Below the pieces are notes generated by a model. It saw only the letters and a program-made list of their open reading frames with translations, did not search any database and was not told where the DNA came from. A program made the position numbers and the translations under genes. Shown here one piece after another: positions 5,287 through 17,018 of a stretch of 64,000 nucleotides of DNA; within the stretch, counting starts at the first letter, position 1, and each line of letters begins with the position of its first letter. The stretch spans positions 83,881-147,880 of the forward strand of contig CAWJQM010000001.1 of assembly GCA_963845095.1 (NCBI GenBank), given 5' to 3'. This stretch comes from an uncultured delta proteobacterium (lineage in GTDB: Bacteria > Desulfobacterota > Syntrophia > Syntrophales > Smithellaceae).

Positions 5287-6282
5287 ATGATGAAACGCTG
5301 GACTGTTTTATTGTTTGCTTTCTTAGCAGTGGCGCTCGTCGCCTCACCTGTTCTGGCCAAAACAAGCTGGAACGCCAACTCCGTCTGGCCCCCCAAAAAT
5401 CACCAAAGTGTGGGCCTCAACGATTTTGCCGAAAAAGTTAAAAAAGCCACCAACGGCGAACTGGAAATTGTCGTGCACACGGGCGGCGCCCTGGGCTATA
5501 AGGGTCCCGAGCTGCTGAAGACCGTCCGCGACGGCCTCGTTCCCATTTCTGACATGCTCATCAGCGGTGTTGCCGGCGACGAAAAGATTTTTCAGATTGT
5601 GACTCTGCCCTTCCTGGTGCGTGACTTTAAGGAACTCCAGACCCTGCTCAGCATTTGCCGCCCCTATTTTGACAAGACTGCGGAACAAAAATGGAACCAG
5701 AAAATTCTTTATATCGCCCCCTGGCCCGGCGCCGGACTCTGGACCAAGAAGAAGATCACCTCCCTGGAGGAAATGAAAGGTCTCAAGACGCGAACCTATG
5801 ACAAAAACGGCGCCCTGGTCATGGAAGCCGTCGGCGCCACGCCTCATGCGCTGCCTTTCAGCGAGGTTTATACATCCCTCCAGACCGGTTTGATCGACTC
5901 CGTCATGACCTCCACGCCAACGGCTGTAGATGCCAAATTCTGGGAGGTCCTCAAATATTACGAGCCTTTCAACATTACCATCGCCACCAATATGGTGACG
6001 GTAAACCTCAAGTCATTTCAGAAACTCCCCAAAGACCAGCAGAAAGCTCTCCTGAAAATCGGCGGGGAAATGGAAAAAGAAATGTGGGCCAATGTCCCCA
6101 AACTCGATAAGGATCAGGAGGCCATCTCCAACAAAAACGGCATTGAAACCATTGCCCCCAGCAAAAAGCTGATTGCCGACCTGGAAAAGATCACGGAAAA
6201 CATCCGGGCGGAATGGCTGAAAACAGCCCCTCCCGAGGGCAAGAAAATTTACAGTGACTTCTTAAAAACAGTAAAGAGATAA
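5287..6282 (+). CDS. dctP: TRAP transporter substrate-binding protein
   Basis: Signal peptide, KGLKTR, LPFSEVYTSLQTGLID. Confidence 0.92.
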   Translation: MMKRWTVLLFAFLAVALVASPVLAKTSWNANSVWPPKNHQSVGLNDFAEKVKKATNGELEIVVHTGGALGYKGPELLKTVRDGLVPISDMLISGVAGDEKIFQIVTLPFLVRDFKELQTLLSICRPYFDKTAEQKWNQKILYIAPWPGAGLWTKKKITSLEEMKGLKTRTYDKNGALVMEAVGATPHALPFSEVYTSLQTGLIDSVMTSTPTAVDAKFWEVLKYYEPFNITIATNMVTVNLKSFQKLPKDQQKALLKIGGEMEKEMWANVPKLDKDQEAISNKNGIETIAPSKKLIADLEKITENIRAEWLKTAPPEGKKIYSDFLKTVKR

Positions 6283-6303
6283 AAAAGAAAACATCGTGAA
6301 AAG

Positions 6304-6342
6304 CGGGAATCCCCTCCTGCAAAGGTGGGGATTTTCGTTTTT
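6304..6342 (+). terminator. Stem-loop after dctP
   Basis: CGGGAATCCCC...GGGGATTTTCG followed by a T run. Confidence 0.6.
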
Positions 6343-6359
6343 GCAGACGGGAAACCATC

Positions 6360-6897
6360 ATGAAAAGATTCATTAATGCCATCGACGCTCTTTCGGGTAT
6401 CGGCGGCTGGCTGGCAGCCGGATTTATGTCCATCGCCTTGTTGCTGGCGCTGGCCGAAATTGCCACCCGGAGCTTTCCTGGGCCGGACTCTCTACATCGC
6501 CGACGAGTACTCCGGCTATCTCATGGCCCTGATGACATTAATCGGCCTGGCTTATACACTGCGGGAACGGGGGCATATCCGGATGATGTTTCTCGTCCAT
6601 GTGCTGAAGGGCCGGACAAAAACAATCTATAACATGATCTGTCTGGTGGTCGGATTTCTGTTCTGCCTCGCCTTCGTCTGGTTTACCTGGGATTTTTTCT
6701 GGGATTCGGTCGTGAATAAATCCCAGTCCATGCAGCTGTCGGAAACCTATCTGGCCATCCCCCAGTCCTTTTGCCTCTGGGCGGCATCCTCCTGGCCCTG
6801 CAGTTTCTGGCGGAATTCCTCAAAGGGGTGGCCGTGCTCCGCAAAAAAACAGAGGGACTGCGCATTCAGGAAGAAGCGGATGAACTCGGACGTTAGG
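6360..6897 (+). CDS. dctQ: TRAP small permease (frameshifted)
   Basis: Pieces MKRFINAIDALS... and ADEYSGYLM...LAYTLRERGHIRM; indels near 6475 and 6770. Confidence 0.85.
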
Positions 6898-6914
6898 AAA
6901 AGGAGAAATGATTA

Positions 6915-8219
6915 ATGCACGTTGATCTGGGACCGGCCTCGGCGGTCATTCTGGGCTTACTGCTGCTCTTTCTCGGCGGCTCCGTCTGGATCGGCATCGC
7001 GCTGTTTCTGGTGGGCATCGGCGGTTTTTTTGTTTTTACCGATGTATCCTTTGGCGCGATTCTCGCCAACATCGTCTGGAACAACACAAGCGGCTCCGCC
7101 ATGATGGCCCTGCCGTTCTTCATCTGGATGGGGGAAATCCTCTTCCGGAGCAGGATCTCGGAGAGCCTTTTCCGGGGGCTTTCTCCCTGGATGGACTCTA
7201 TTCCCGGGCGTCTCGTGCATGTCAATATCCTGGCCTGCACCTTTTTCGCAGCGGTCAGCGGCTCTTCGGCTGCGACTACGGCAACTGTCGGCAAGATCAC
7301 CGTTCCCGAACTGCAGAAGCGGGGCTACGACCATGACCTGTCCATAGGCTCCCTGGCGGGCGCCGGAACGCTGGGTTTCATGATTCCGCCGAGCATGATG
7401 ATGCTGGTTTACGGAATTATCGGGGACGTGAGCATCGGCAAACTCTTCATCGCCGGTTTCATCCCCGGTTTTATGATTGCTTTTCTGTTTTCCGCCTATA
7501 TCCTGATCCGCTGCCTCATCACACCCAGCCTGGCCCCCCGCGGTGAGGACCGCTACTCCTGGAAGGATCGCTTCCTGGCCCTTCCCGCAATCGCCCCGGT
7601 TGTAATCCTGGTGCTGTTTGTCCTGGGTAGCATCTATATGGGATGGTCCACGCCCACCGAGGCCGGCGCCATCGGCGTCCTGGGTGCGTTCTTTTTTGCC
7701 GCCCTGACACGCAGCCTGACCTGGGAAGTTTTTAAAGTCAGCCTGCTGGGTGCCGTCAAGACCAGTTGCATGATCATGCTGATTGTCATGGGTGCATCCT
7801 ATCTGTCGAATGTCATCGGTTACCTGGGCATCACCCGGGCGCTGACGGATTACGTCACCACCCTCGGCCTTTCACCATACGCTCTGATCATCATTCTTTC
7901 GATACTTTATCTGATCCTGGGCTGTCTGGTCGACGGTTTTTCCATGATCGTCATGACGGCGCCGGTGGTTATACCGCTCATCTCGGCGGCCAAATTCGAT
8001 CCTATATGGTTTGGCATTTACCTTGTTCTGATGATTGAACTGGCGCAGGTCACGCCGCCGGTGGGGTTCAACCTTTTTGTGATCAGCGGCCTGAATAATG
8101 ACAGTCTGGCGACGATTGCCAAGGCCGCTTTCCCGTTTTTCCTGCTTATGTTGCTGGCTACGTTCCTGATCACCGTTTTCCCGGAGATCGTCCTGTATCT
8201 GCCCAGCAAGATGAAATGA
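6915..8219 (+). CDS. dctM: TRAP large permease
   Basis: FAAVSGSSAAT, GTLGFMIPPS, TPTEAGA, TPPVGFNLFV. Confidence 0.95.
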   Translation: MHVDLGPASAVILGLLLLFLGGSVWIGIALFLVGIGGFFVFTDVSFGAILANIVWNNTSGSAMMALPFFIWMGEILFRSRISESLFRGLSPWMDSIPGRLVHVNILACTFFAAVSGSSAATTATVGKITVPELQKRGYDHDLSIGSLAGAGTLGFMIPPSMMMLVYGIIGDVSIGKLFIAGFIPGFMIAFLFSAYILIRCLITPSLAPRGEDRYSWKDRFLALPAIAPVVILVLFVLGSIYMGWSTPTEAGAIGVLGAFFFAALTRSLTWEVFKVSLLGAVKTSCMIMLIVMGASYLSNVIGYLGITRALTDYVTTLGLSPYALIIILSILYLILGCLVDGFSMIVMTAPVVIPLISAAKFDPIWFGIYLVLMIELAQVTPPVGFNLFVISGLNNDSLATIAKAAFPFFLLMLLATFLITVFPEIVLYLPSKMK

Positions 8220-9202
8220 TCTGCACTCCAGCCCTACCAGGCTTTCTTAGTACCCGCCGGACTACCTGCCTGATTGAGGCAATGCTTTTTTGCCGGCATT
8301 CCCAGAGGTGCTCTGCTTCGTCTGTTTCGATGAGCTCAAAAAGGACATAATCGCCCGGTTTCAGATGCGCCAGCCGATCCAGGTCTGCTCTGACCACCCT
8401 GGCGATCCGGGCATAGCCGCCGATTGTCCGTTCATAAAGCATGATGATGGGCAGGCCGTCCCCGGGAATCTGCACAGTACCGGGCAGGATGCCCTCGGAA
8501 ATAATGCTTTTATCAACTGCATCGCTAAACTGCAGCGGCCGGCCTTCCAGGCGGATGCCTGTCCGGTTAATGGTCGCCGATACATCATAGACTTTCCCGC
8601 TTTTCCCGTCTGCGAATTTTTTTTGGAAAGCCTCCGGAAAATAATGATATTCCGGTCCGGCGATAACACGCAGACGATGGGGAGATTTCATCGGGGGGAT
8701 TTCGTTGTCAGGAATCGCGCCCCACGGAACGCCATAAATGTTGTCGATGTCGATCCAGTCACCTCCGGCCAGTGCCCTGCCCTGATAACCGCCAAAACCG
8801 CACTCCAGATTGGTGGCAAAGCTTCCCGACAACGCGCTCCAGAACCATATGTCCGGCAAAACCGAGATAGTACCGGAAACCTTCTGTTATCTTCTGAACC
8901 GTCAAAATGTTGCCGGCTTCCGCCCTAAACGATGTCCAGGGGTTGAGCGGTTTGTCATCCAGTGATGCCCGAACCCGCGCCCCGGTCAGCGCACAAATCA
9001 TTTTCCGATGAAACCGGAGGGAAAATTGTTCGCCGATGATTTCCAGCGCCGGCGCATGGCCATCCTGGGCCAGCAGGCGATTTAGGGCGCCGTAGGCAAA
9101 GGCGTCCAGCGCGGCGGAAGGCGGCACACCTACGGCAGCGTGTCCATAGCGACCGCTGTCCACAATGCAGGTCATTGTTCCCGGATGAATGATTTCAATC
9201 AT
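8170..9202 (-). CDS. pxpC: 5-oxoprolinase subunit C (KipA-like), frameshift near 8820; 3' end uncertain
   Basis: DSGRYGHAAVGVPPSAALD; NRTGIRL, GTVQIPGDGLPII, TIGGYARIARV. Confidence 0.88.
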
Positions 9203-9873
9203 GGTGTTTGGACAAATTTGACCCTGTCGCCAATCTGCAGGAGACTGTAGGGTTCCTTCCCGGAATTAAATAAGGGGACATCGGTGCGGCCGATAATCCG
9301 CCAGCCGGCCGGTGATGCAAAGGGATAGACGCCGGTCTGACCCTGGGCGATGCCGACGGAGCCGGCAATAATTCGCGTCCGGGGAGTCTCCAGCCTGGGA
9401 ACATGGATACGCGAATCGAGTGTTCCCATGTAGGGGAAGCCCGGGATGAACCCCACGGCAAAAACAGTATAAAAGACATCGGCATGGATGGCGATGACTT
9501 CCTGCTCCGAAAGCCCGGTCTGCCGGCAGACGACTTTCATGTCCAGCGCGTCCGGTCCGCCGTAGTGCACGGGAATCTCATGCCGGACAGGATCAGGTGT
9601 GTTGCCGGGACGGAGCGCTTCGTCCTCTTTTTCCTGCAGCAGCGAAGACAGGCGGTCATAAGTTGTCCGCTCGGTGTTGAAGTGGATGAGACAAGACCGG
9701 AAACTGGGGATAAGGTCGATGATTTCCGGCAGCTCCAGGAATTTCATGTAAAAATAAAAATTCCTGACTTTTTCATGAACTTCCGGATCAATCTTTTCGC
9801 CAAAGATAATCCGGATGCCGTCTTCGCCAAACCGCGAAATATTCATCTGATCCGGTGTCGCGTCCATCGTCAT
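9199..9873 (-). CDS. pxpB: 5-oxoprolinase subunit B (KipI-like)
   Basis: IPVHYGG, GFIPGFPYMG, GSVGIA, SPAGWRIIGRT. Confidence 0.93.
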   Translation of the reverse strand: MTMDATPDQMNISRFGEDGIRIIFGEKIDPEVHEKVRNFYFYMKFLELPEIIDLIPSFRSCLIHFNTERTTYDRLSSLLQEKEDEALRPGNTPDPVRHEIPVHYGGPDALDMKVVCRQTGLSEQEVIAIHADVFYTVFAVGFIPGFPYMGTLDSRIHVPRLETPRTRIIAGSVGIAQGQTGVYPFASPAGWRIIGRTDVPLFNSGKEPYSLLQIGDRVKFVQTP

Positions 9874-10655
9874 CTGGGTATGATTTCTCCCAAAGGCTTA
9901 ATTGCAATGCCCTCCCGGGCAAAGTATTCAACCATCAACCTTGCCGCAGCAACGCTTACCGGATTGTCGCCGTGGATGCACAGGGTATGCACAGCCACAT
10001 CGATCCACCGGCCGTTGATACTTTTGAAGCCGTTTTCCATGACCATTGCCACTGCGCGCTTGGCAATCAGTTCCGGATCATTCAGAACGACGCCTGCCTG
10101 TTTGCGGGGGACAAGCTCCCCTTCGTCCGTGTACTGGCGATCGGGAAAGGCCTCCAAGGCGATGCGCAGTCCCTCCCGGCGCGCCTTGGCGGCAAGCTCA
10201 GCTCCCCGTTTTGTGCCGAGCGTCAGGAAGACGGGGTCGCCGAACGCCCTGCTCACCTGACGGACGAGCTCGAGAAAAAGATCAGGCTTGGTGACAAGGT
10301 CATTGTAGAGAGCGCCGTGGAGTTTGATGTGCTGCAGAGGCAGGTCGTGCAGGGACAAAAAACCGCGGAGGGCGCCGACCTGATAGACAACATAAGCGTT
10401 AAGTTCCGCCGGGCTGATATCCATATACCTGCGGCCAAATCCCATCAGATCGGGAAAACCCGGGTGGGCTCCGATGCCGATATGATGGTCGCGGCAAAGA
10501 CGCACTGTACTGTCCATAACCAGCGGGTCGGAAGCGTGAAATCCGCAGGCGATGCTGGCCGAGGAAATGTAACGGACAGCCTCTTCATCCCGGCCCAGCG
10601 TGTATGCCCCGAAAGACTCGCCCATGTCACAATTGATGTCAATTACCTTTGCCAT
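9870..10655 (-). CDS. pxpA: 5-oxoprolinase subunit A (LamB/YcsF)
   Basis: IDINCDMGESFG, IACGFHA, GAHPGFPD, HIKLHGALYN, LCIHGDN. Confidence 0.95.
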   Translation of the reverse strand: MAKVIDINCDMGESFGAYTLGRDEEAVRYISSASIACGFHASDPLVMDSTVRLCRDHHIGIGAHPGFPDLMGFGRRYMDISPAELNAYVVYQVGALRGFLSLHDLPLQHIKLHGALYNDLVTKPDLFLELVRQVSRAFGDPVFLTLGTKRGAELAAKARREGLRIALEAFPDRQYTDEGELVPRKQAGVVLNDPELIAKRAVAMVMENGFKSINGRWIDVAVHTLCIHGDNPVSVAAARLMVEYFAREGIAIKPLGEIIPR

Positions 10656-10895
10656 GTTGGATCACCCCGTTATTAAAGTGCTCAGAAGTAGAATTGCGAT
10701 GCGACGACTTCTCGTCCGTTTCCCTGCCGGCAGGAGTGCTTAAGTGCTTAGGCTGCTGATTTAACACACCCTGCCTTCCCCGGCAACCAAATTCTTCCCC
10801 TTTGTGCCCGTCATTTTTTATTTGACACGCAAGTGGATATATGATTTATCTAGGACAACAATAATTAAATTTCATTAATCAGGTCGCAGACGGAA

Positions 10896-10997
10896 ATGGT
10901 CAGCAGAAACGATTACAGGATGGAAAGCAAAATAAGCCGTAACTATTATGGCTATTACTATTATTGCAATATCCGGTATCGGTCTGCCCCTTGCTGA
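10896..10997 (+). CDS. Putative Tyr-rich attenuator leader peptide (alternative start 10920)
   Basis: MVSRNDYRMESKISRNYYGYYYYCNIRYRSAPC*; 6 Tyr in 7 codons at 10944-10964; too short for the ORF track. Confidence 0.7.
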   Translation: MVSRNDYRMESKISRNYYGYYYYCNIRYRSAPC

Positions 10998-11018
10998 AAC
11001 GCTGCAAATAAATCGAAG

Positions 11019-11061
11019 AAAAGCCACGGGTAGATAGAGAAACCGTGGCTTTTTTGTTTTT
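11019..11061 (+). terminator. Intrinsic terminator (attenuator) in the leader of the LIV-paaK operon
   Basis: AAAAGCCACGG(11019-11029)/CCGTGGCTTTT(11043-11053) plus T tract, about 40 nt before the start codon. Confidence 0.85.
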
Positions 11062-11099
11062 AGGTCAAGCAGTATAATATCTGGAAAAGGAGAAGGGTT

Positions 11100-12241
11100 A
11101 TGTTGAAAAAAATGTTGAAGTTAGTTTTTTCCATAGTAGTCGTCGGGATTATGGCGGGATCTGCTGTTGCTGCTCCCATTAAGATCGGGGCGCTTTTTTC
11201 CGTGTCCGGGCCGGCTTCGTTCTTAGGTGAGCCGGAACGCAACACCGCCGAAATGATGGTGAACGAAATCAACAAAGCCGGTGGAATTAAGGGCCGCAAG
11301 CTGGAGCTGATCGTTTACGACACTCAGGCTGATGCGACCAAAGCAGTACAGGCGGCAAATAAGCTGATTAAGGACGACAAGGTTGTCGCCATCATCGGAC
11401 CCAGCACAACCGGCGACACGATGGCGGTGATTCCGGTAGTGGAAAAGGCCGGAGATACCTCTTGTTTCCTGCGCTGCCGGCATCAAAATAACCGAACCGG
11501 TGAAGAAGTGGGTTTTTAAAACGGCGCAAAACGATGCTTTGGCCGTAGCCAGAATATTTGATTACATGAAGAGACAGAAAATTTCTAAAATTGCCATTCT
11601 GACCGTATCGGATGGTTTTGGTTCTTCCGGCCGGGAACAGCTTGTCTCGCAGGCCGGCAAATACGGCATATCAGATCATCTCGGATGAAACATACGGGCC
11701 CAAGGATACGGACATGACGGCACAATTGACTAAAATCCGCAGCGGCGCAGCGCAGGCCATTGTCTGCTGGGGAACAAATCCCGGACCGGCGGTAGTGGCC
11801 AGGAATGTCCAGCAACTGGGGATTAAACTTCCCTTGTATATGAGCCATGGCGTATCTTCCAAGAAATTCATCGAACTGGCCGGTGATGCGGCCGAAGGCA
11901 TTATCCTGCCCTCAGGCCGGGTTATTGTTGCCCACAGCCTTCCCCAGACTGATCCCCAGAAAAAGGCGCTGCTCAACTACGTTGAAAATTACAAGAAACA
12001 TTATAAAGTTGAAGGTGATCATTTTGGCGGGCATGCCTATGACGCCATTATGCTGATCAAAGGCGCTATGGAACGCGGCGCGGATACACCTGCTTCCATT
12101 CGCGATCAACTGGAAAAAACAGCCAACTTTTCCGGCATCGGCGGAACATTTCATTTTTCACCGCAGGATCACGCCGGTCTGACCAGCGATGCTTTTGTCC
12201 TGGTGCAAATTAAAAATAAAGGCTGGACACTGCTTAAATAA
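11100..12241 (+). CDS. LIV-type ABC transporter substrate-binding protein (frameshifts near 11460 and 11670)
   Basis: IKIGALFSVSGPASFLGEPE, IIGPSTTG, DTDMTAQLTKI, FGGHAYDA across three ORFs. Confidence 0.9.
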
Positions 12242-12308
12242 GTGTGTATTTATTGCGTCAGGAGCAACGCCGGATTCATTCCTGCGTTGCTCTTACTATA
12301 TAAAAAAT

Positions 12309-13193
12309 ATGGATAACTCCAGTCAATTATTTCAATATATTTTATCAGGGCTCTCCAACGGAGCGATTTATGCGCTGATTGGTTTCGGCTTCGCCATTAT
12401 TTATAATGCCACCGGGATCATCAATTTTGCCCAGGGTGAGTTTGTCATGCTGGGGGGCATGCTGACGATTTTTTTTCTTGGCTTGCTGAATTTCCCTTTA
12501 ATTCCGGCAATTGTTCTGGCCATCCTAATTTCCACACTCATCGGCATTGCTTTTGAGCGGCTGGCGATCAGGCCTCTGAAAAATGCCCCGCCGCTGAGCA
12601 TGGTAATTATAACCATCGGCGCCAGCATTCTGATTCGCGGCATTGCCATGCTGGTCTGGGGAAAAGATACTTCCGCCGTCCCGCCCTTTTCCGGCAATGA
12701 CCCGCTGTATATAGCCGGAGCAACAATCCTGCCCCAGCATCTCTGGATTTTCGCCATAACCCTGTTGATCATTGCCGCCAACAAGTTATTTTTTAATTAC
12801 AGCATCGTCGGCAAGGCCATGCGCGCCTGTGCCTATAACAGTCAGGCCGCCAGCCTTGTCGGAATCAATGTCAAGACCATGGTGCTTCTTTCCTTTGTCA
12901 TCAGTTCCGCTATCGGTTCCATGGCGGGAATAATCATCGCACCGCTGACGATGACTTCTTACGATGTCGGCGTCATGCTGGGGCTGAAGGGTTTTTGCGC
13001 GGTGATTATCGGCGGCATGAGCAGCGGACTGGGAACAATAATGGGCGGCTTGCTGCTGGGATTATTGGAATCGCTCGGCGCCGGTTATATCTCCGCCAGC
13101 TATAAAGATGCTATTGCTTTCATAATTTTATTGTTAATCCTTTTTGTGCGGCCGGAAGGCTTATTTAAGCAGAAGGAAACGGAAAGAGTTTAG
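12309..13193 (+). CDS. livH: LIV-type ABC permease
   Basis: GAIYALIGFGFAIIYNATGIINFAQGEF, GKAMRA, VRPEGLF. Confidence 0.92.
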   Translation: MDNSSQLFQYILSGLSNGAIYALIGFGFAIIYNATGIINFAQGEFVMLGGMLTIFFLGLLNFPLIPAIVLAILISTLIGIAFERLAIRPLKNAPPLSMVIITIGASILIRGIAMLVWGKDTSAVPPFSGNDPLYIAGATILPQHLWIFAITLLIIAANKLFFNYSIVGKAMRACAYNSQAASLVGINVKTMVLLSFVISSAIGSMAGIIIAPLTMTSYDVGVMLGLKGFCAVIIGGMSSGLGTIMGGLLLGLLESLGAGYISASYKDAIAFIILLLILFVRPEGLFKQKETERV

Positions 13194-13207
13194 TCGCAAA
13201 AACAGCC

Positions 13208-14198
13208 ATGACCAAAGAAAAACGTGAAATAATAATATTTCTGATCTTTACGCTGGCCGTATTGATTACGCCTTTCTTTCTGCAGGGCAGCTATTTTCTC
13301 AATGTGCTGGTTTTTATCGGCATCAACACCATGCTGGCCGTGGCACTGAATCTTCTGCTGGGCTATGCCGGGCAGATTTCCCTCGGACATGCCGCCTTCT
13401 TCGGATCAGGGGCATATATATCGGCGATTCTTACGGCCAGGTTCGGTCTTGACCCCTGGCTGGCCATGGGCGTTGCGGCTGCCGCCAATGGCGTCCTGGC
13501 CTTTGTTATCGGTTTCCCAATTTTAAAATTGAAAGGGCATTACCTGGCAATGGCGACACTCGGTTTCGGCATTATCATGTTTATTATCTTTAATGAAACC
13601 GTATCGATCACCGGAGGACCGTCGGGATTTTCGGGCATTCCCAACATTAATATCGGCTCCCTGATCTTTGACAACGATTGGAACAATTATTATCTGATCT
13701 GGATAATTACTCTGCTGGTCATGCTTTTATCAATCAATTTATCTCAATCACGCATCGGACGCGCGCTGCGGGCGATTCACGATTCGGAAGTCGCTGCCCG
13801 GGTCATGGGCGTCAATGCCCGGCTGCTGAAAGTTCAGATATTTACTGTTTCCGCCGTTATTTCAGCGATTGCCGGCAGCCTTATATGCTCATACCATGAC
13901 TTTCATTTCTCCGACTTCTTTCGGGTTTAATTTTTCCATCGAACTTTTGACCATGGTAATCATCGGTGGTCTGGGAAGCATTTACGGTTCCTTTCTCGGT
14001 GCGGCAATTTTAACCATTCTGCCGGAGTTCCTCCGTGTCTTGCATGATTTTGACATTATTGTTTACGGCCTGATGCTGATTATGATGACTATGTATATGC
14101 CCGGCGGCCTGATCAGCGGCTTGCAGCAGATAGCCGGAATTCGCCGGCAGGAAAATAAAAAGCCGGGGGGCAGAGCATGCTTAGACTTGAAGGGATAA
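13208..14198 (+). CDS. livM: LIV-type ABC permease (frameshift near 13880)
   Basis: LNLLLGYAGQISLGHAAFFG, LKGHYLAMATLGF, GRALRAIHDSE, MVIIGGLGS. Confidence 0.9.
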
Positions 14199-14928
14199 CC
14201 AAGATATTCGGCGGGCTTACCGCTCTGGAGGATGTGTCCCTCGGAGGTCAAGAAAGGCTCCATAACCGGCGTTATCGGCCCGAACGGCGCAGGCAAAACA
14301 ACATTATTTAATATTGTAACCGGCCTTTATACACAGACATCGGGCAAGGTTTATCTCGGTGAAAAAAATATTTCCCTCCTGGCGACGGAAATCCTGGCTC
14401 GCTCGGTCTGGTGCGCACTTTCCAGAACGTGGAGCTTTTCGGGCAAATGACCGTGCTGGAAAATGTTATGGTCGGACTCCATACCAAGAGCAGGAGCGGC
14501 ATAATTTCCTGTGCGTTTAAATTACCCCGGCAGATTAAGGAAGAAAAGCAAATCAAAGAAAAGGCCCTGCACTGGCTGGAATTTACCGGCCTGGCCGACG
14601 AGGCCGAAATACGGCTCATAATCTGCCTTTCGGCAAGGGTAGGATCCTGGAGATTGCCCGTGCTCTGGCCGTGGAGCCGCAGCTTATCCTGATGGACGAA
14701 CCGGCGGCGGGATTGAACAGCCAGGAAACGGCGCAGCTGGCTTTGCTCATCCGTAAAATCCGGGAATCGGGCATCACTATCGTGCTGGTGGAGCACGATA
14801 TGGATCTGGTAATGGACATTTGTGACTCGGTCATCGTTTTAAATCTGGGTAAAAAGCTGGCCTGCGGCACTCCGCGCGAGATTCAGGAAAATACGGCGGT
14901 TATCGCCGCGTATTTGGGCGAAGGTTGA
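14177..14928 (+). CDS. livG: LIV-type ABC ATPase (several frameshifts)
   Basis: [35 protein letters not shown]. Confidence 0.88.
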
Positions 14929-14935
14929 TTTCGCT

Positions 14936-15702
14936 ATGTTGAAGATTAAAAACATCAATACTTACTATGGTCAGGTCCATGCCTTGAAAAATGTTTCTCT
15001 GCATTTGAACGAAGGGGAGATAGTCACGCTCATCGGCGCCAATGGAGCCGGCAAAACCACCCTGCTTAATTCTTTATCCTGCATTGTGCCGGTGCAAAGC
15101 GGCGAGATTCTCTTCGCCGGAAAATCCATCGGCAATCTTGCCCCGCAGTCAGATCGTCAGACTGGGCATTTCGCAGGTTCCGGAAGGCAGGCAGGTCTTC
15201 AAACCGCTGTCGGTGGAAGATAATCTGGAACTGGGCGCTTATCAGCAATACCGATCCCGGACGGGCAGGGCGGAGGCAAAAAACACCGCCGCCGAGATTT
15301 ACGATTTATTTCCCATATTGCGCACAAGAAGAAAGCAACTGGCCGGAACGCTGTCGGGCGGAGAACAGCAAATGCTTTCCATCGGTCGCGCGCTGATGGC
15401 CAAACCAAAGCTTTTACTGCTCGATGAACCGTCGATGGGACTTGCCCCGATGATCGTCCAGGAAATATTCAGGGTTATTGAAAATCTGTCGAAGGAAAAG
15501 AAAACAACCGTTTTGTTAGTGGAACAGAATGCCCGTGCCGCCCTGAAAATGGCCCATCGCGGCTATGTGATGGAAACGGGGAAAATGATTCTGGAAGGAA
15601 CTGCCGCCGAATTACTGGAGCAATAAAGACGTGCAGCGGGCCTACCTGGGCAGGGATAAAAAGGAAATATGGGAGAGATGGAAATTTTACAGCAGTATTT
15701 GA
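14936..15702 (+). CDS. livF: LIV-type ABC ATPase (frameshifts)
   Basis: GANGAGKTT, VPEGRQVF, LSGGEQQM, LDEPSMGLAP, VEQNA. Confidence 0.9.
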
Positions 15703-15715
15703 AGGATTAGGATGG

Positions 15716-17018
15716 ATGAACATCTGGGATTCGGCTCATGAGTGTATGTCGCGTGACGAACTGGAGCAACTGCAATTGGAAAGACTGCAGGCGACAATCA
15801 ACCGGGTGCATAAGAACGTTACTCATTACCGGAAAAAATTCGCCCAGCCGGGTATCATACCGGAGGACATCCGATCGCTGGCCGATTTGACGAAACTTCC
15901 TTTCACCGACTAAAGAGGATTTGCGCATTAACTATCCTTATGGAATGTTCGCCGTTCCGCTGCGGGAAGTAGTCCGCATTCATTCGTCTTCCGGAACAAC
16001 CAGCAAACCGATTGTCGTCGGTTATACTAAAAACGATATCCGTATCTGGTCTAATCTTGTCGCCCGTTTTATGACCGCCGCCGGCGTAACTTCCGATGAT
16101 CTCGTGCAGATAGCTTTCAGCTACGGTCTTTTTACCGGCGCTTTCGGCGTCCATTACGGCGCGGAAGTGATCGGGGCTTCGGTAATTCCGATGGGTACGG
16201 GCAACACGGAAAAACAAATCATGATTATGCAGGATTATAAAACAACCGTTCTGGTCAGCACACCTAGTTATGCCCTGCAGCTCGCCGACCGCATCAGCCA
16301 ATCCGGCATCGAGGCGAAAACGCTTTCTCTCAAATTCGGCCTTTTTGGCGGAGAACCGTGGTCGGAGAATATGCGCCGGGAAATAGAAAGCCGGCTTTGT
16401 CTCAGTGCAACCGATAACTACGGAATTTCGGAAGTGATCGGCCCGGGTATTGCCGGCGAGTGTCAGTGCAAAAACGGCATGCATATTTATGAAGACTCTT
16501 TTATTCCGGAAATTATTGATCCGCAGACAGGGGCGGTGCTCGAGGCCGGACAGGAGGGCGAATTGGTGCTGACGACACTGACCAAAGAGGCCTTCCCGAT
16601 GATCCGTTACCGCACCGGCGATATAACCCGCCTGGATTACGCGCCCTGCGCCTGCGGCCGAACTCTCGTGCGCATGCAGAGAGTCTTGCGGCGTTCCGAC
16701 GACATGCTGATTATTCGGGGCATCAATGTATATCCTTCGCAAATTGAAGAGGCCATTATCAGCAGTGCCCAGGGGGAAGCCCCCTATCAGATTATTGTTG
16801 ATCGCCGGGGCGCGATGGACAGCCTGGAAGTGGTAATTGAAATTACCAGCAAGATCTTCTCCCTGGAGCTGCAGAAACAGCGCTCTTTTCTGGAAACTCT
16901 GAAAAAGCGCATCGCGTCGGTAACCGGAATTGGAGTGTCCGTTAAGTTAGTGGAAGCCAATAGCTTACCTCGGACGGAAGGAAAGATTCGCAAGGTGTTG
17001 GATCAAAGGCGGATTTGA
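15716..17018 (+). CDS. paaK: Phenylacetate-CoA ligase family protein (frameshift near 15910)
   Basis: YPYGMFAVP, HSSSGTT, YGLFTGAFG, DNYGISE, RYRTGD, RSDDMLIIRGINVYPSQIE. Confidence 0.92.

Follow-up and report, generated by a model that had tools for sequence, protein, structure and literature searches.

A putative tyrosine-sensing attenuator before a probable aryl-acid importer and CoA-ligase operon in Syntrophales

A short leader rich in tyrosine (Tyr) codons lies before an operon for a LIV-type ATP-binding cassette (ABC) transporter and a PaaK-family coenzyme A (CoA) ligase in the window, a 64,000-nucleotide (nt) stretch of DNA from an uncultured member of the Smithellaceae, order Syntrophales (G000:C1:83881-147880; the source genome, G000, is 88% complete). 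An initial annotation had read the leader as a Tyr-sensing transcription attenuator, and the operon as a means to import and activate 4-hydroxyphenylacetate for Tyr synthesis. The elements of the leader are as follows.

10822..10827, plus strand: candidate promoter −35 element, TTGACA; present in all but one of 20 leader regions (19 of 20), the exception being truncated at a contig edge.
10847..10852, plus strand: inferred candidate −10 element after a 19-nt spacer; weak in G000, TAnnnT in most relatives.
10896..10997, plus strand: leader open reading frame (ORF) of 33 codons; frame open in 18 of 19 distinct leaders.
10944..10964, plus strand: putative control codons, YYGYYYY; at least 4 Tyr per 10 codons in 21 of 22 leaders.
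10979..10989, plus strand: predicted antiterminator 5′ arm, within the ORF, 18 nt past the final Tyr codon.
11028..11038, plus strand: predicted antiterminator 3′ arm, comprising the top 2 bp of the terminator stem and its loop.
11019..11055, plus strand: computed intrinsic terminator hairpin and T-run; stem 11019-11029/11043-11053, T-run 11050-11055.

The TTGACA hexamer, the YYGYYYY run, the complementary segments TCTGCCC (10983-10989) and GGGTAGA (11028-11034) and the terminator of the initial annotation are all present. A density of at least 6 Tyr in 7 codons occurs at a single place, that of the leader, among the 5,903,448 six-frame codons of G000. Two starts, 10896 and 10920, had been offered for the ORF that ends at 10997; the ORF is there, and the first start is favoured by its conservation in 16 of 20 leaders (ATG in 12, GTG in 4). 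The antiterminator is longer than TCTGCCC/GGGTAGA, with 8 bp plus 2 (10979-10989/11028-11038). Its pairing is kept in relatives, yet the proposed overlap with the terminator 5′ arm amounts to just 2 bp of stem (G11028-G11029), the remainder of the 3′ arm being terminator loop. The terminator, which is predicted to precede the first gene, has a computed folding energy of −19.7 kcal/mol (z −4.6; 1 of 200 shuffles equally good). A consensus scanner called neither the TTGACA promoter nor the 11019-11055 terminator in the window, the latter because its 13-nt loop exceeds the scanner's limit. The 19-nt spacing that the promoter elements (10822-10852) appear to have in most relatives is unusual for sigma-70 and comes with a conserved TG-N-TTTA block.

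The genes that the leader would control follow on the same strand.

11100..12241, plus strand: LivK-fold binding protein, aryl-acid-binding group; indels near 11454 and 11674.
12309..13193, plus strand: LivH-like permease, intact.
13208..14183 (end approximate), plus strand: LivM-like permease; indels near 13879 and 14137.
14177..14928, plus strand: LivG-like ATPase; several indels.
14936..15681 (end approximate), plus strand: LivF-like ATPase; indels near 15145 and 15619.
15716..17018, plus strand: PaaK-family aryl-acetate CoA ligase, Asn-pocket clade; indel near 15906.

These livK-, livH-, livM-, livG- and livF-like genes and the PaaK-family ligase bear out the LIV-type transporter and phenylacetate-CoA ligase that had been annotated. 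Compared with genome G001, five of the six genes are broken by single-base indels; relatives' contigs lack the extra bases near 11449 and at 11674, and the indels are therefore most likely assembly errors. A Tyr frame produced by such an indel was considered and rejected; the leader ORF and terminator are free of indels. Protein analyses were run on intact orthologues. The binding protein scores 110 bits against the LivJ/LivK model NF011933 (cut-off 477), and the ligase, as its intact G001 orthologue, scores 548.9 bits against PaaK TIGR02155, below the cut-off of 646.3 and within the same wider family. AlphaFold models were poor (mean predicted local distance difference test scores of 59.1 for the ligase and 58.5 for the binding protein), and a fold search of the binding protein, in which many periplasmic binding proteins tied, was used for entry titles alone.

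Matches in a DNA search came from 35 of 61 genomes and comprised 30 loci, 28 of them with upstream sequence. The terminator motif is present in 20 of the 28 (G000 included), and all 20 have a Tyr-rich ORF. An upstream alignment had been suggested as a check on the leader, and in it the Tyr run, frame, stop position, antiterminator and terminator are conserved across Syntrophales relatives; within the genus, the leader is retained in each of the other 12 genomes, with both its Tyr-rich ORF and its terminator. Every aligned leader ORF has a length that is a multiple of 3. The run uses both TAT and TAC and carries synonymous changes, and throughout the set of 22 leaders Phe occurs at most 3 times and Trp never. 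The leader thus has the conserved small ORF and the cognate-codon run that leader-peptide attenuators need.

The initial annotation had also recognized that conservation of an overlapping Ile-rich frame in place of the Tyr frame would speak against it. Such an Ile/Thr-rich frame exists at 10948-11037; were it the true leader, the operon would sense branched-chain amino acids, which fits its LIV annotation, and the frame reads the shared RNA motif as G-L-P-L, like the ilvB leader discussed below. The comparison refutes it as a candidate. In 10 of the 20 leaders, ACG or ACA replaces its ATG. Of the 19 distinct leaders, counted from the 10896 column, 18 have an internal stop in the Ile frame and 15 have one in the third frame, against 1 in the Tyr frame. 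Within the run, the ratio of nonsynonymous to synonymous differences (pN/pS) is 1.68 in the Ile frame and 0.13 in the Tyr frame, by crude pairwise counts over related sequences that are not independent. Furthermore, a ribosome in the Ile frame would block termination, because the stop of that frame sits in the terminator loop. We consider this alternative barely credible.

Folding around 10940-11060 and stem covariation had been put forward as further checks. The consensus fold of the 22 leaders contains the terminator and nothing else; when the alignment is cut before the terminator 3′ arm, the antiterminator becomes the sole consensus helix. Over its 8 pairs, 92.6% of cells are paired, compared with 29-45% in slid controls, one pair alternates between G-C, G-U and A-U, and 0 of 500 shuffles reach its covariation score, in a control that ignores relatedness. 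The arm begins 15-18 nt past the final Tyr codon in 21 of 22 leaders, and the stop codon ends 14 nt past the arm start in 20 of 22. With an assumed ribosome footprint of 12 nt, the modelled mean probability of the antiterminator is 0.94 with a ribosome stalled at the last Tyr codon and 0.04 with one at the stop, and thus this spacing is predicted to free the arm on stalling and to mask it at the stop. The computed barrier for refolding from antiterminator to terminator is about 16 kcal/mol. Of the trp/phe/his-type geometry that had been proposed, the codons, arm, terminator and spacing hold, and the trp-type protector hairpin is not conserved: two candidate helices for an upstream protector or pause hairpin (1:2) are 83% and 74% paired among the leaders, not above shuffles, and are absent from the consensus folds. 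The switch would therefore consist of two helices and be set kinetically.

Presumably, when charged tRNA-Tyr is scarce, the ribosome would stall at 10944-10964 and leave the arm at 10979-10989 free, and this arm could pair with the emerging 11028-11038 before the terminator 3′ arm exists, so that RNA polymerase would read through. When Tyr is ample, a ribosome at the stop (10995-10997) would cover the arm and the terminator would form. On the evidence of comparative sequence and modelling, the leader is very probably a ribosome-coupled Tyr attenuator; it appears well conserved and likely works like pheL or trpL.

Several observations pull the other way, and some of them would suit a leader that is a relic or nearly constitutive, in which the terminator would hold read-through at a fixed low level and control by the Tyr codons would have ceased. 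In full-length RNA the terminator prevails whatever the ribosome state (mean probability 0.90-0.99; 0.90-0.96 with a stalled ribosome), and the antiterminator, conserved with covariation as it is, invades the stem by only 2-4 nt and is outcompeted at equilibrium. Of the 22 leaders, 14 have a helix overlap of 2 nt and 8 one of 4 nt, compared with 9 nt in three of four aroF leaders, and by reasoning the lower terminator stem might pair alongside the antiterminator to give a pseudoknot. The antiterminator forms even when no ribosome is present (mean 0.71). Taken by itself, its stretch of sequence has a folding energy hardly below that of shuffles (z −1.25), and shuffle tests overstate significance for related sequences. 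Eight of the 28 scorable orthologous loci have neither Tyr ORF nor terminator motif, early leader stops occur in G081 and G006, and one Smithella clade (L102, L124, L109-L132 group) shows leader decay or loss, with degenerate intermediates that retain the terminator. The Tyr ORF was left uncovered in all four RNA contig sets of relatives; one relative's RNA contig spans the terminator region and the first gene, possibly as DNA or read-through, and was hence not used. A similar leader before Streptomyces ilvB showed no effect of codon swaps, according to the excerpted text of PMC1262725. Of these points, the 2 bp overlap, the equilibrium preference for the terminator and the clade with degenerate intermediates fit a relic, as does the weak ribosome-binding site before 10896. 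Its retention in the whole genus, the synonymous changes within the run and the fixed spacing argue for a leader under selection, and we regard a relic as improbable. For the Tyr attenuator, the greater stability of the terminator as an end state means that the switch must be kinetic.

Support for a functional run also comes from sister leaders. The GTCTGCC arm and a CC(A/G)(C/T)GGG terminator arm precede other amino-acid operons of G000 as well. A Phe/Tyr leader with two tandem terminators stands before aroF-aroB-pheA-aroDE-aroA-aroK-aroC-tyrA (G000:C18:127536-127295, L060) and has homologues across the order, a WWW leader stands before trpB2 (G000:C5:91886-92055, L062), and a Val/Leu/Ile leader stands before ilvB (G000:C14:77450-77650, L167). 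A Phe-rich leader (G000:C15:67880-68033, L061) precedes another LIV-type system that, by eye, seems to have an embedded acyl-CoA ligase. A Leu-rich leader ending in A-R-R-F, with a similar terminator (G000:C12:134700-134901; L168, L252), is kept in relatives and precedes a four-subunit POR/VOR-type 2-oxoacid:ferredoxin oxidoreductase, which suggests that Leu may be made from isovalerate via reductive carboxylation. In an alignment of 11 sisters, pairing reaches 100% in the terminator, where four pairs are compensated, and 92% in the antiterminator. An RNA-core model matched 138 of 151 genomes of the order; 19 of 26 new loci could be parsed, 18 lying before DAHP synthase (Phe/Tyr/Trp leaders) and one, a Tyr leader, before the same LIV-type transporter as in the window. 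A loose genome-wide scan for an ORF plus hairpin (at least 131 hits among 61,367 ORFs) served as a lead only, and covariance model R1 recovered the sisters. The sister codons match the pathway wherever the pathway is known, which makes the strongest case for a functional Tyr run.

Two further features of the sisters can be recorded here. The trpB2 leader has two additional alternative helices, which by eye would make a design of five segments. The ilvB leader reads the shared GGTCTGCC motif as G-L-P, in the same frame that is Ile/Thr-rich in the Tyr leader; (TAT)n and (ATT)n are one repeat, and therefore a shift of frame could switch the specificity of a leader from Tyr to Ile or back.

Orthologues of the binding protein were found at 80 loci, in genomes that partly overlap those of the 30-locus set, so that the counts are not additive. 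At 39 of these loci the binding protein lies in a larger cluster, 10 have a Tyr-run leader, 14 an unrelated leader of a second type, 16 neither and 1 is too short; the 16 include a Tyr leader whose terminator contains an N, as well as a variant of the second type. The second type consists of an ORF of about 20 codons ending in Tyr-x-Tyr-stop, one base and then a GCCTGC...GCAGGC hairpin (e.g., L106:9693-10070). In a quick protein tree the leader types are interleaved. The stop-plus-hairpin pattern, with the Tyr codons left out of the query, matched 180 of the order's 339 genomes, and a reversed control matched about 25; within the locus set, 45 of 56 distinct pattern hits have Tyr-x-Tyr before the stop. 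In these 45 leaders the first Tyr codon is TAT in 25 and TAC in 20, the second is always TAT, x is variable, and both TGA and TAA serve as the stop. No U-tract follows the hairpin in any of the 45; C exceeds G after the hairpin in 44 and at the ORF end in all 45, and rho was found in all five genomes checked. By analogy, this second leader is likely a Rho-dependent attenuator. It is absent from G000 and, over 7 loci, gave no Rfam match at the gathering score. Eighteen of the 45 precede the same ABC operon, and hence a second Tyr leader provides independent evidence that the operon answers to Tyr; the other 27 precede a TRAP importer. In L204-L208 some of these TRAP operons continue into an ADP-forming acyl-CoA synthetase gene, and L206 also has an aminotransferase gene.

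A likely cargo of the operon is suggested by gene order and by pocket residues. Genes like iorA, for one subunit of indolepyruvate:ferredoxin oxidoreductase (IorAB), lie upstream in 32 of the 80 loci, in the usual order iorA-iorB-ligase1-ACT-SBP1-SBP2-livHMGF-ligase2 (SBP, binding protein), in which the window genes correspond to SBP2 and ligase2. By eye, none of the 28 scorable among these 32 Geobacteraceae-type loci has a convincing leader before iorA. Three named Geobacteraceae (L134, L128, L154) carry the leaderless set iorA-iorB-paaK1-ACT-SBP1-SBP2-livHMGF(-paaK2), and their paired paralogues differ at pocket residues; the same gene set occurs in cultured Geobacteraceae, and the substrate claim is therefore directly testable. 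Of 116 family genomes, 107 have an iorA-like gene. G000 itself contains two such loci, with iorB confirmed as adjoining one, and the genome thus seems to hold both the aryl-CoA ligase and the IorAB that Ior-dependent aryl-acid salvage needs.

By sequence, the nearest solved relatives of the binding protein are the R. palustris aryl-acid group (E 1e-45 to 5e-35), not E. coli LivJ. In CouP, His309 and Gln305 bind the ring 4-OH, and Arg197, Ser222 and Thr102 bind the carboxylate (PMC3610893, in part). When these positions are mapped through the 3TX6 alignment (four residues fit CouP numbering with one offset), the window protein has His, His, Pro, Thr and Thr at His309, Gln305, Arg197, Ser222 and Thr102, respectively. 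His stands at both the Gln305 and His309 places in 41 of 43 single binding proteins, and the two are kept in 29 and 34 of 36 tandem-second binding proteins; tandem-first paralogues have Thr or Ala at the Gln305 place in 36 of 36 and Tyr at the His309 place in 31 of 36. Among 98 ligases, Asn is found in 61 of 61 of the window ligase's clade and the Ile of PaaK in 36 of 37 others, at a position reported to line the aryl pocket (Law and Boulanger 2011). The Asn-clade ligase follows the transporter in nearly all loci long enough to tell. PaaK1 can activate 4-hydroxyphenylacetate (PMC3417372, in part), and methanogens assimilate aryl acids by such a ligase plus Ior, through reductive carboxylation (PMC6737245, in part).

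Two facts weaken the substrate assignment: iorAB lies outside the operon, with the G000 copies scoring below the cut-off, and the carboxylate-binding Arg197 of CouP is replaced by Pro in 43 of 43 binding proteins. The missing Arg is in keeping with the main rival, which retains the Tyr attenuator as described and has the importer carry Tyr or 4-hydroxyphenylpyruvate, while the ligase takes another aryl acid or rides along. The LIV-family fold would suit such a cargo, CouP also binds 4-hydroxyphenylpyruvate (the excerpted PMC3610893), and 27 of the 45 second-type leaders precede a TRAP importer, with no PaaK-type ligase seen within about 8 kb at those TRAP loci that were among 20 regions inspected. 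Set against this are the low score of the binding protein on the LivJ/K model and its closeness to the R. palustris aryl-acid group, the Asn-clade ligase that tracks the transporter, and the pairing of two binding proteins with two ligases beside one iorAB. We therefore judge import of Tyr or its keto acid unlikely.

The direction of the pathway is a separate matter, as the operon could be catabolic, taking up and activating hydroxyphenylacetate for degradation, with the leader inducing it when aromatics are plentiful. PaaK is indeed the entry enzyme of phenylacetate catabolism (PMC4498308, in part), and a PaaK plus Ior gene set leaves the direction unproven (PMC6737245, in part). No dienoyl-CoA hydratase or 4-hydroxybenzoyl-CoA reductase scored above the cut-off in any of five genomes searched (G000 among them being 88% complete), and Tyr excess would shut the operon, because a ribosome at the stop is predicted to give termination. 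Catabolism is thus highly improbable. A search for iorAB and tyrA, suggested at the outset, located iorAB elsewhere in the genome and, correcting the initial annotation, also found tyrA; each of the genus's 13 genomes has a tyrA-like gene, in one case interrupted by a stop. The retention of tyrA points to economy rather than auxotrophy, with salvage supplementing de novo synthesis.

Given the attenuator, the most likely role of the operon, and in our view a probable one, is import and activation of 4-hydroxyphenylacetate for Tyr synthesis. This part of the initial annotation, which we still infer, gains support from the iorAB gene order, the pocket residues, the second Tyr leader and the lack of catabolic markers. 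The ABC system would import 4-hydroxyphenylacetate and the ligase would make its CoA ester; IorAB, encoded elsewhere, would carboxylate the ester to 4-hydroxyphenylpyruvate, from which an aminotransferase would yield Tyr. Such salvage would spare the shikimate route, itself under a sister attenuator in G000. Taken jointly, a Tyr-sensing attenuator that admits transcription into an importer and CoA-ligase operon for 4-hydroxyphenylacetate salvage is the reading that sequence evidence makes reasonably probable. If it is true, the codons give direction and substrate to genes that now carry the labels 'branched-chain amino-acid transporter' or 'phenylacetate-CoA ligase', and energy-limited syntrophs would carry out anabolic salvage of 4-hydroxyphenylacetate, a waste of other fermenters.

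A broader proposal, which we advance tentatively as possible, is that Syntrophales sense Tyr over one aryl-acid import module via two unrelated leaders, one intrinsic and one widespread, undescribed and Rho-type, in which a ribosome starved at Tyr-x-Tyr-stop would be parked against the GC hairpin and shield C-rich RNA. Leader codons would then label the substrates of a large group of orphan importers, CoA ligases and 2-oxoacid oxidoreductases, which would use reductive carboxylation of fermentation acids to rebuild Tyr, Phe and Leu, and the second type would be a new, testable starvation-driven Rho attenuation.

Upstream of the leader, window positions 5287-10655 hold a TRAP transporter (plus strand) convergent with a pxpABC 5-oxoprolinase set (minus strand). 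pxpA is divergent from the leader promoter; many relatives instead have rmuC on the upstream side of the leader.

Leader-peptide attenuation is textbook regulation for Trp, Phe, His, Thr, Leu and Ile/Val. A literature search on Tyr leaders and on attenuation in these taxa found no Tyr-specific leader and no leader on an importer/CoA-ligase operon, subscription papers being outside its scope. The comparative attenuator surveys of Vitreschak 2004 and Lopatovskaya 2010 may list mixed Phe/Tyr leaders. No Rfam family matched the leader at its gathering score: the best plus-strand leader was Thr_leader (RF00506), at 15.1 bits against 55, Phe_leader (RF01859) also fell short, and no T-box matched up to E 10. 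Control by Tyr at the RNA level is listed only via T-boxes in the excerpted text of a 2005 survey (PMC1262725), term searches of PMC4833913 and PMC2965389 returned no mention of tyrosine, and in gammaproteobacteria Tyr genes are under TyrR (PMC5343134, in part). pheL is described in an excerpt of PMC3082878, with a possible pheL in Desulfobacterium.

Like E. coli pheL-pheA and trpL, the Tyr leader has a short ORF with cognate codons, a predicted antiterminator arm in the 3′ end of the ORF and a GC hairpin with a U-run. Attenuators of the pheL/trpL type are on at starvation. Unlike them, the window leader has Tyr codons as its putative control codons, lacks a conserved protector hairpin and would act on genes for an importer and a CoA ligase instead of a biosynthetic enzyme. 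With the methanogen aryl-acid route it shares a PaaK-family ligase and IorAB (PMC6737245, in part), and differs in its dedicated ABC importer, in paralogues seemingly split by ring substituent, in its proposed leader-peptide control and in iorAB outside the operon in this family. The binding protein shares the His309 and Thr102 equivalents with the group of R. palustris CouP (RPA1789; PDB 3SG0, 4DQD, 7YLT, 3UK0, 3TX6/4F8J, 4JB0) and resembles it with His at Gln305 and Thr at Ser222, and differs in Pro at Arg197; CouP feeds hydroxycinnamate catabolism under CouR, unlike the salvage role proposed here. The best solved relatives of the ligase are B. cenocepacia PaaK1 and PaaK2 (PDB 2Y27 and 2Y4O; E 3.5e-133 and 4.9e-128), from which its clade differs by Asn for Ile in D-x-Y-G and, in most members, by Gly in place of Ala in G-x-E-P; both positions are reported to line the aryl pocket.

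The known systems closest to the second type of leader are E. coli tnaC and the actinobacterial cys leaders. tnaC stalls on free Trp. Both share with the second type cognate codons by the stop, no intrinsic terminator and C-rich flanks, and Rho-dependent attenuation has been proposed for the cys leaders (both points from the excerpted text of PMC1262725). Unlike the cys leaders described there, which lack a conserved hairpin, the second type combines Tyr-x-Tyr-stop with a strongly conserved GC hairpin one base past the stop.

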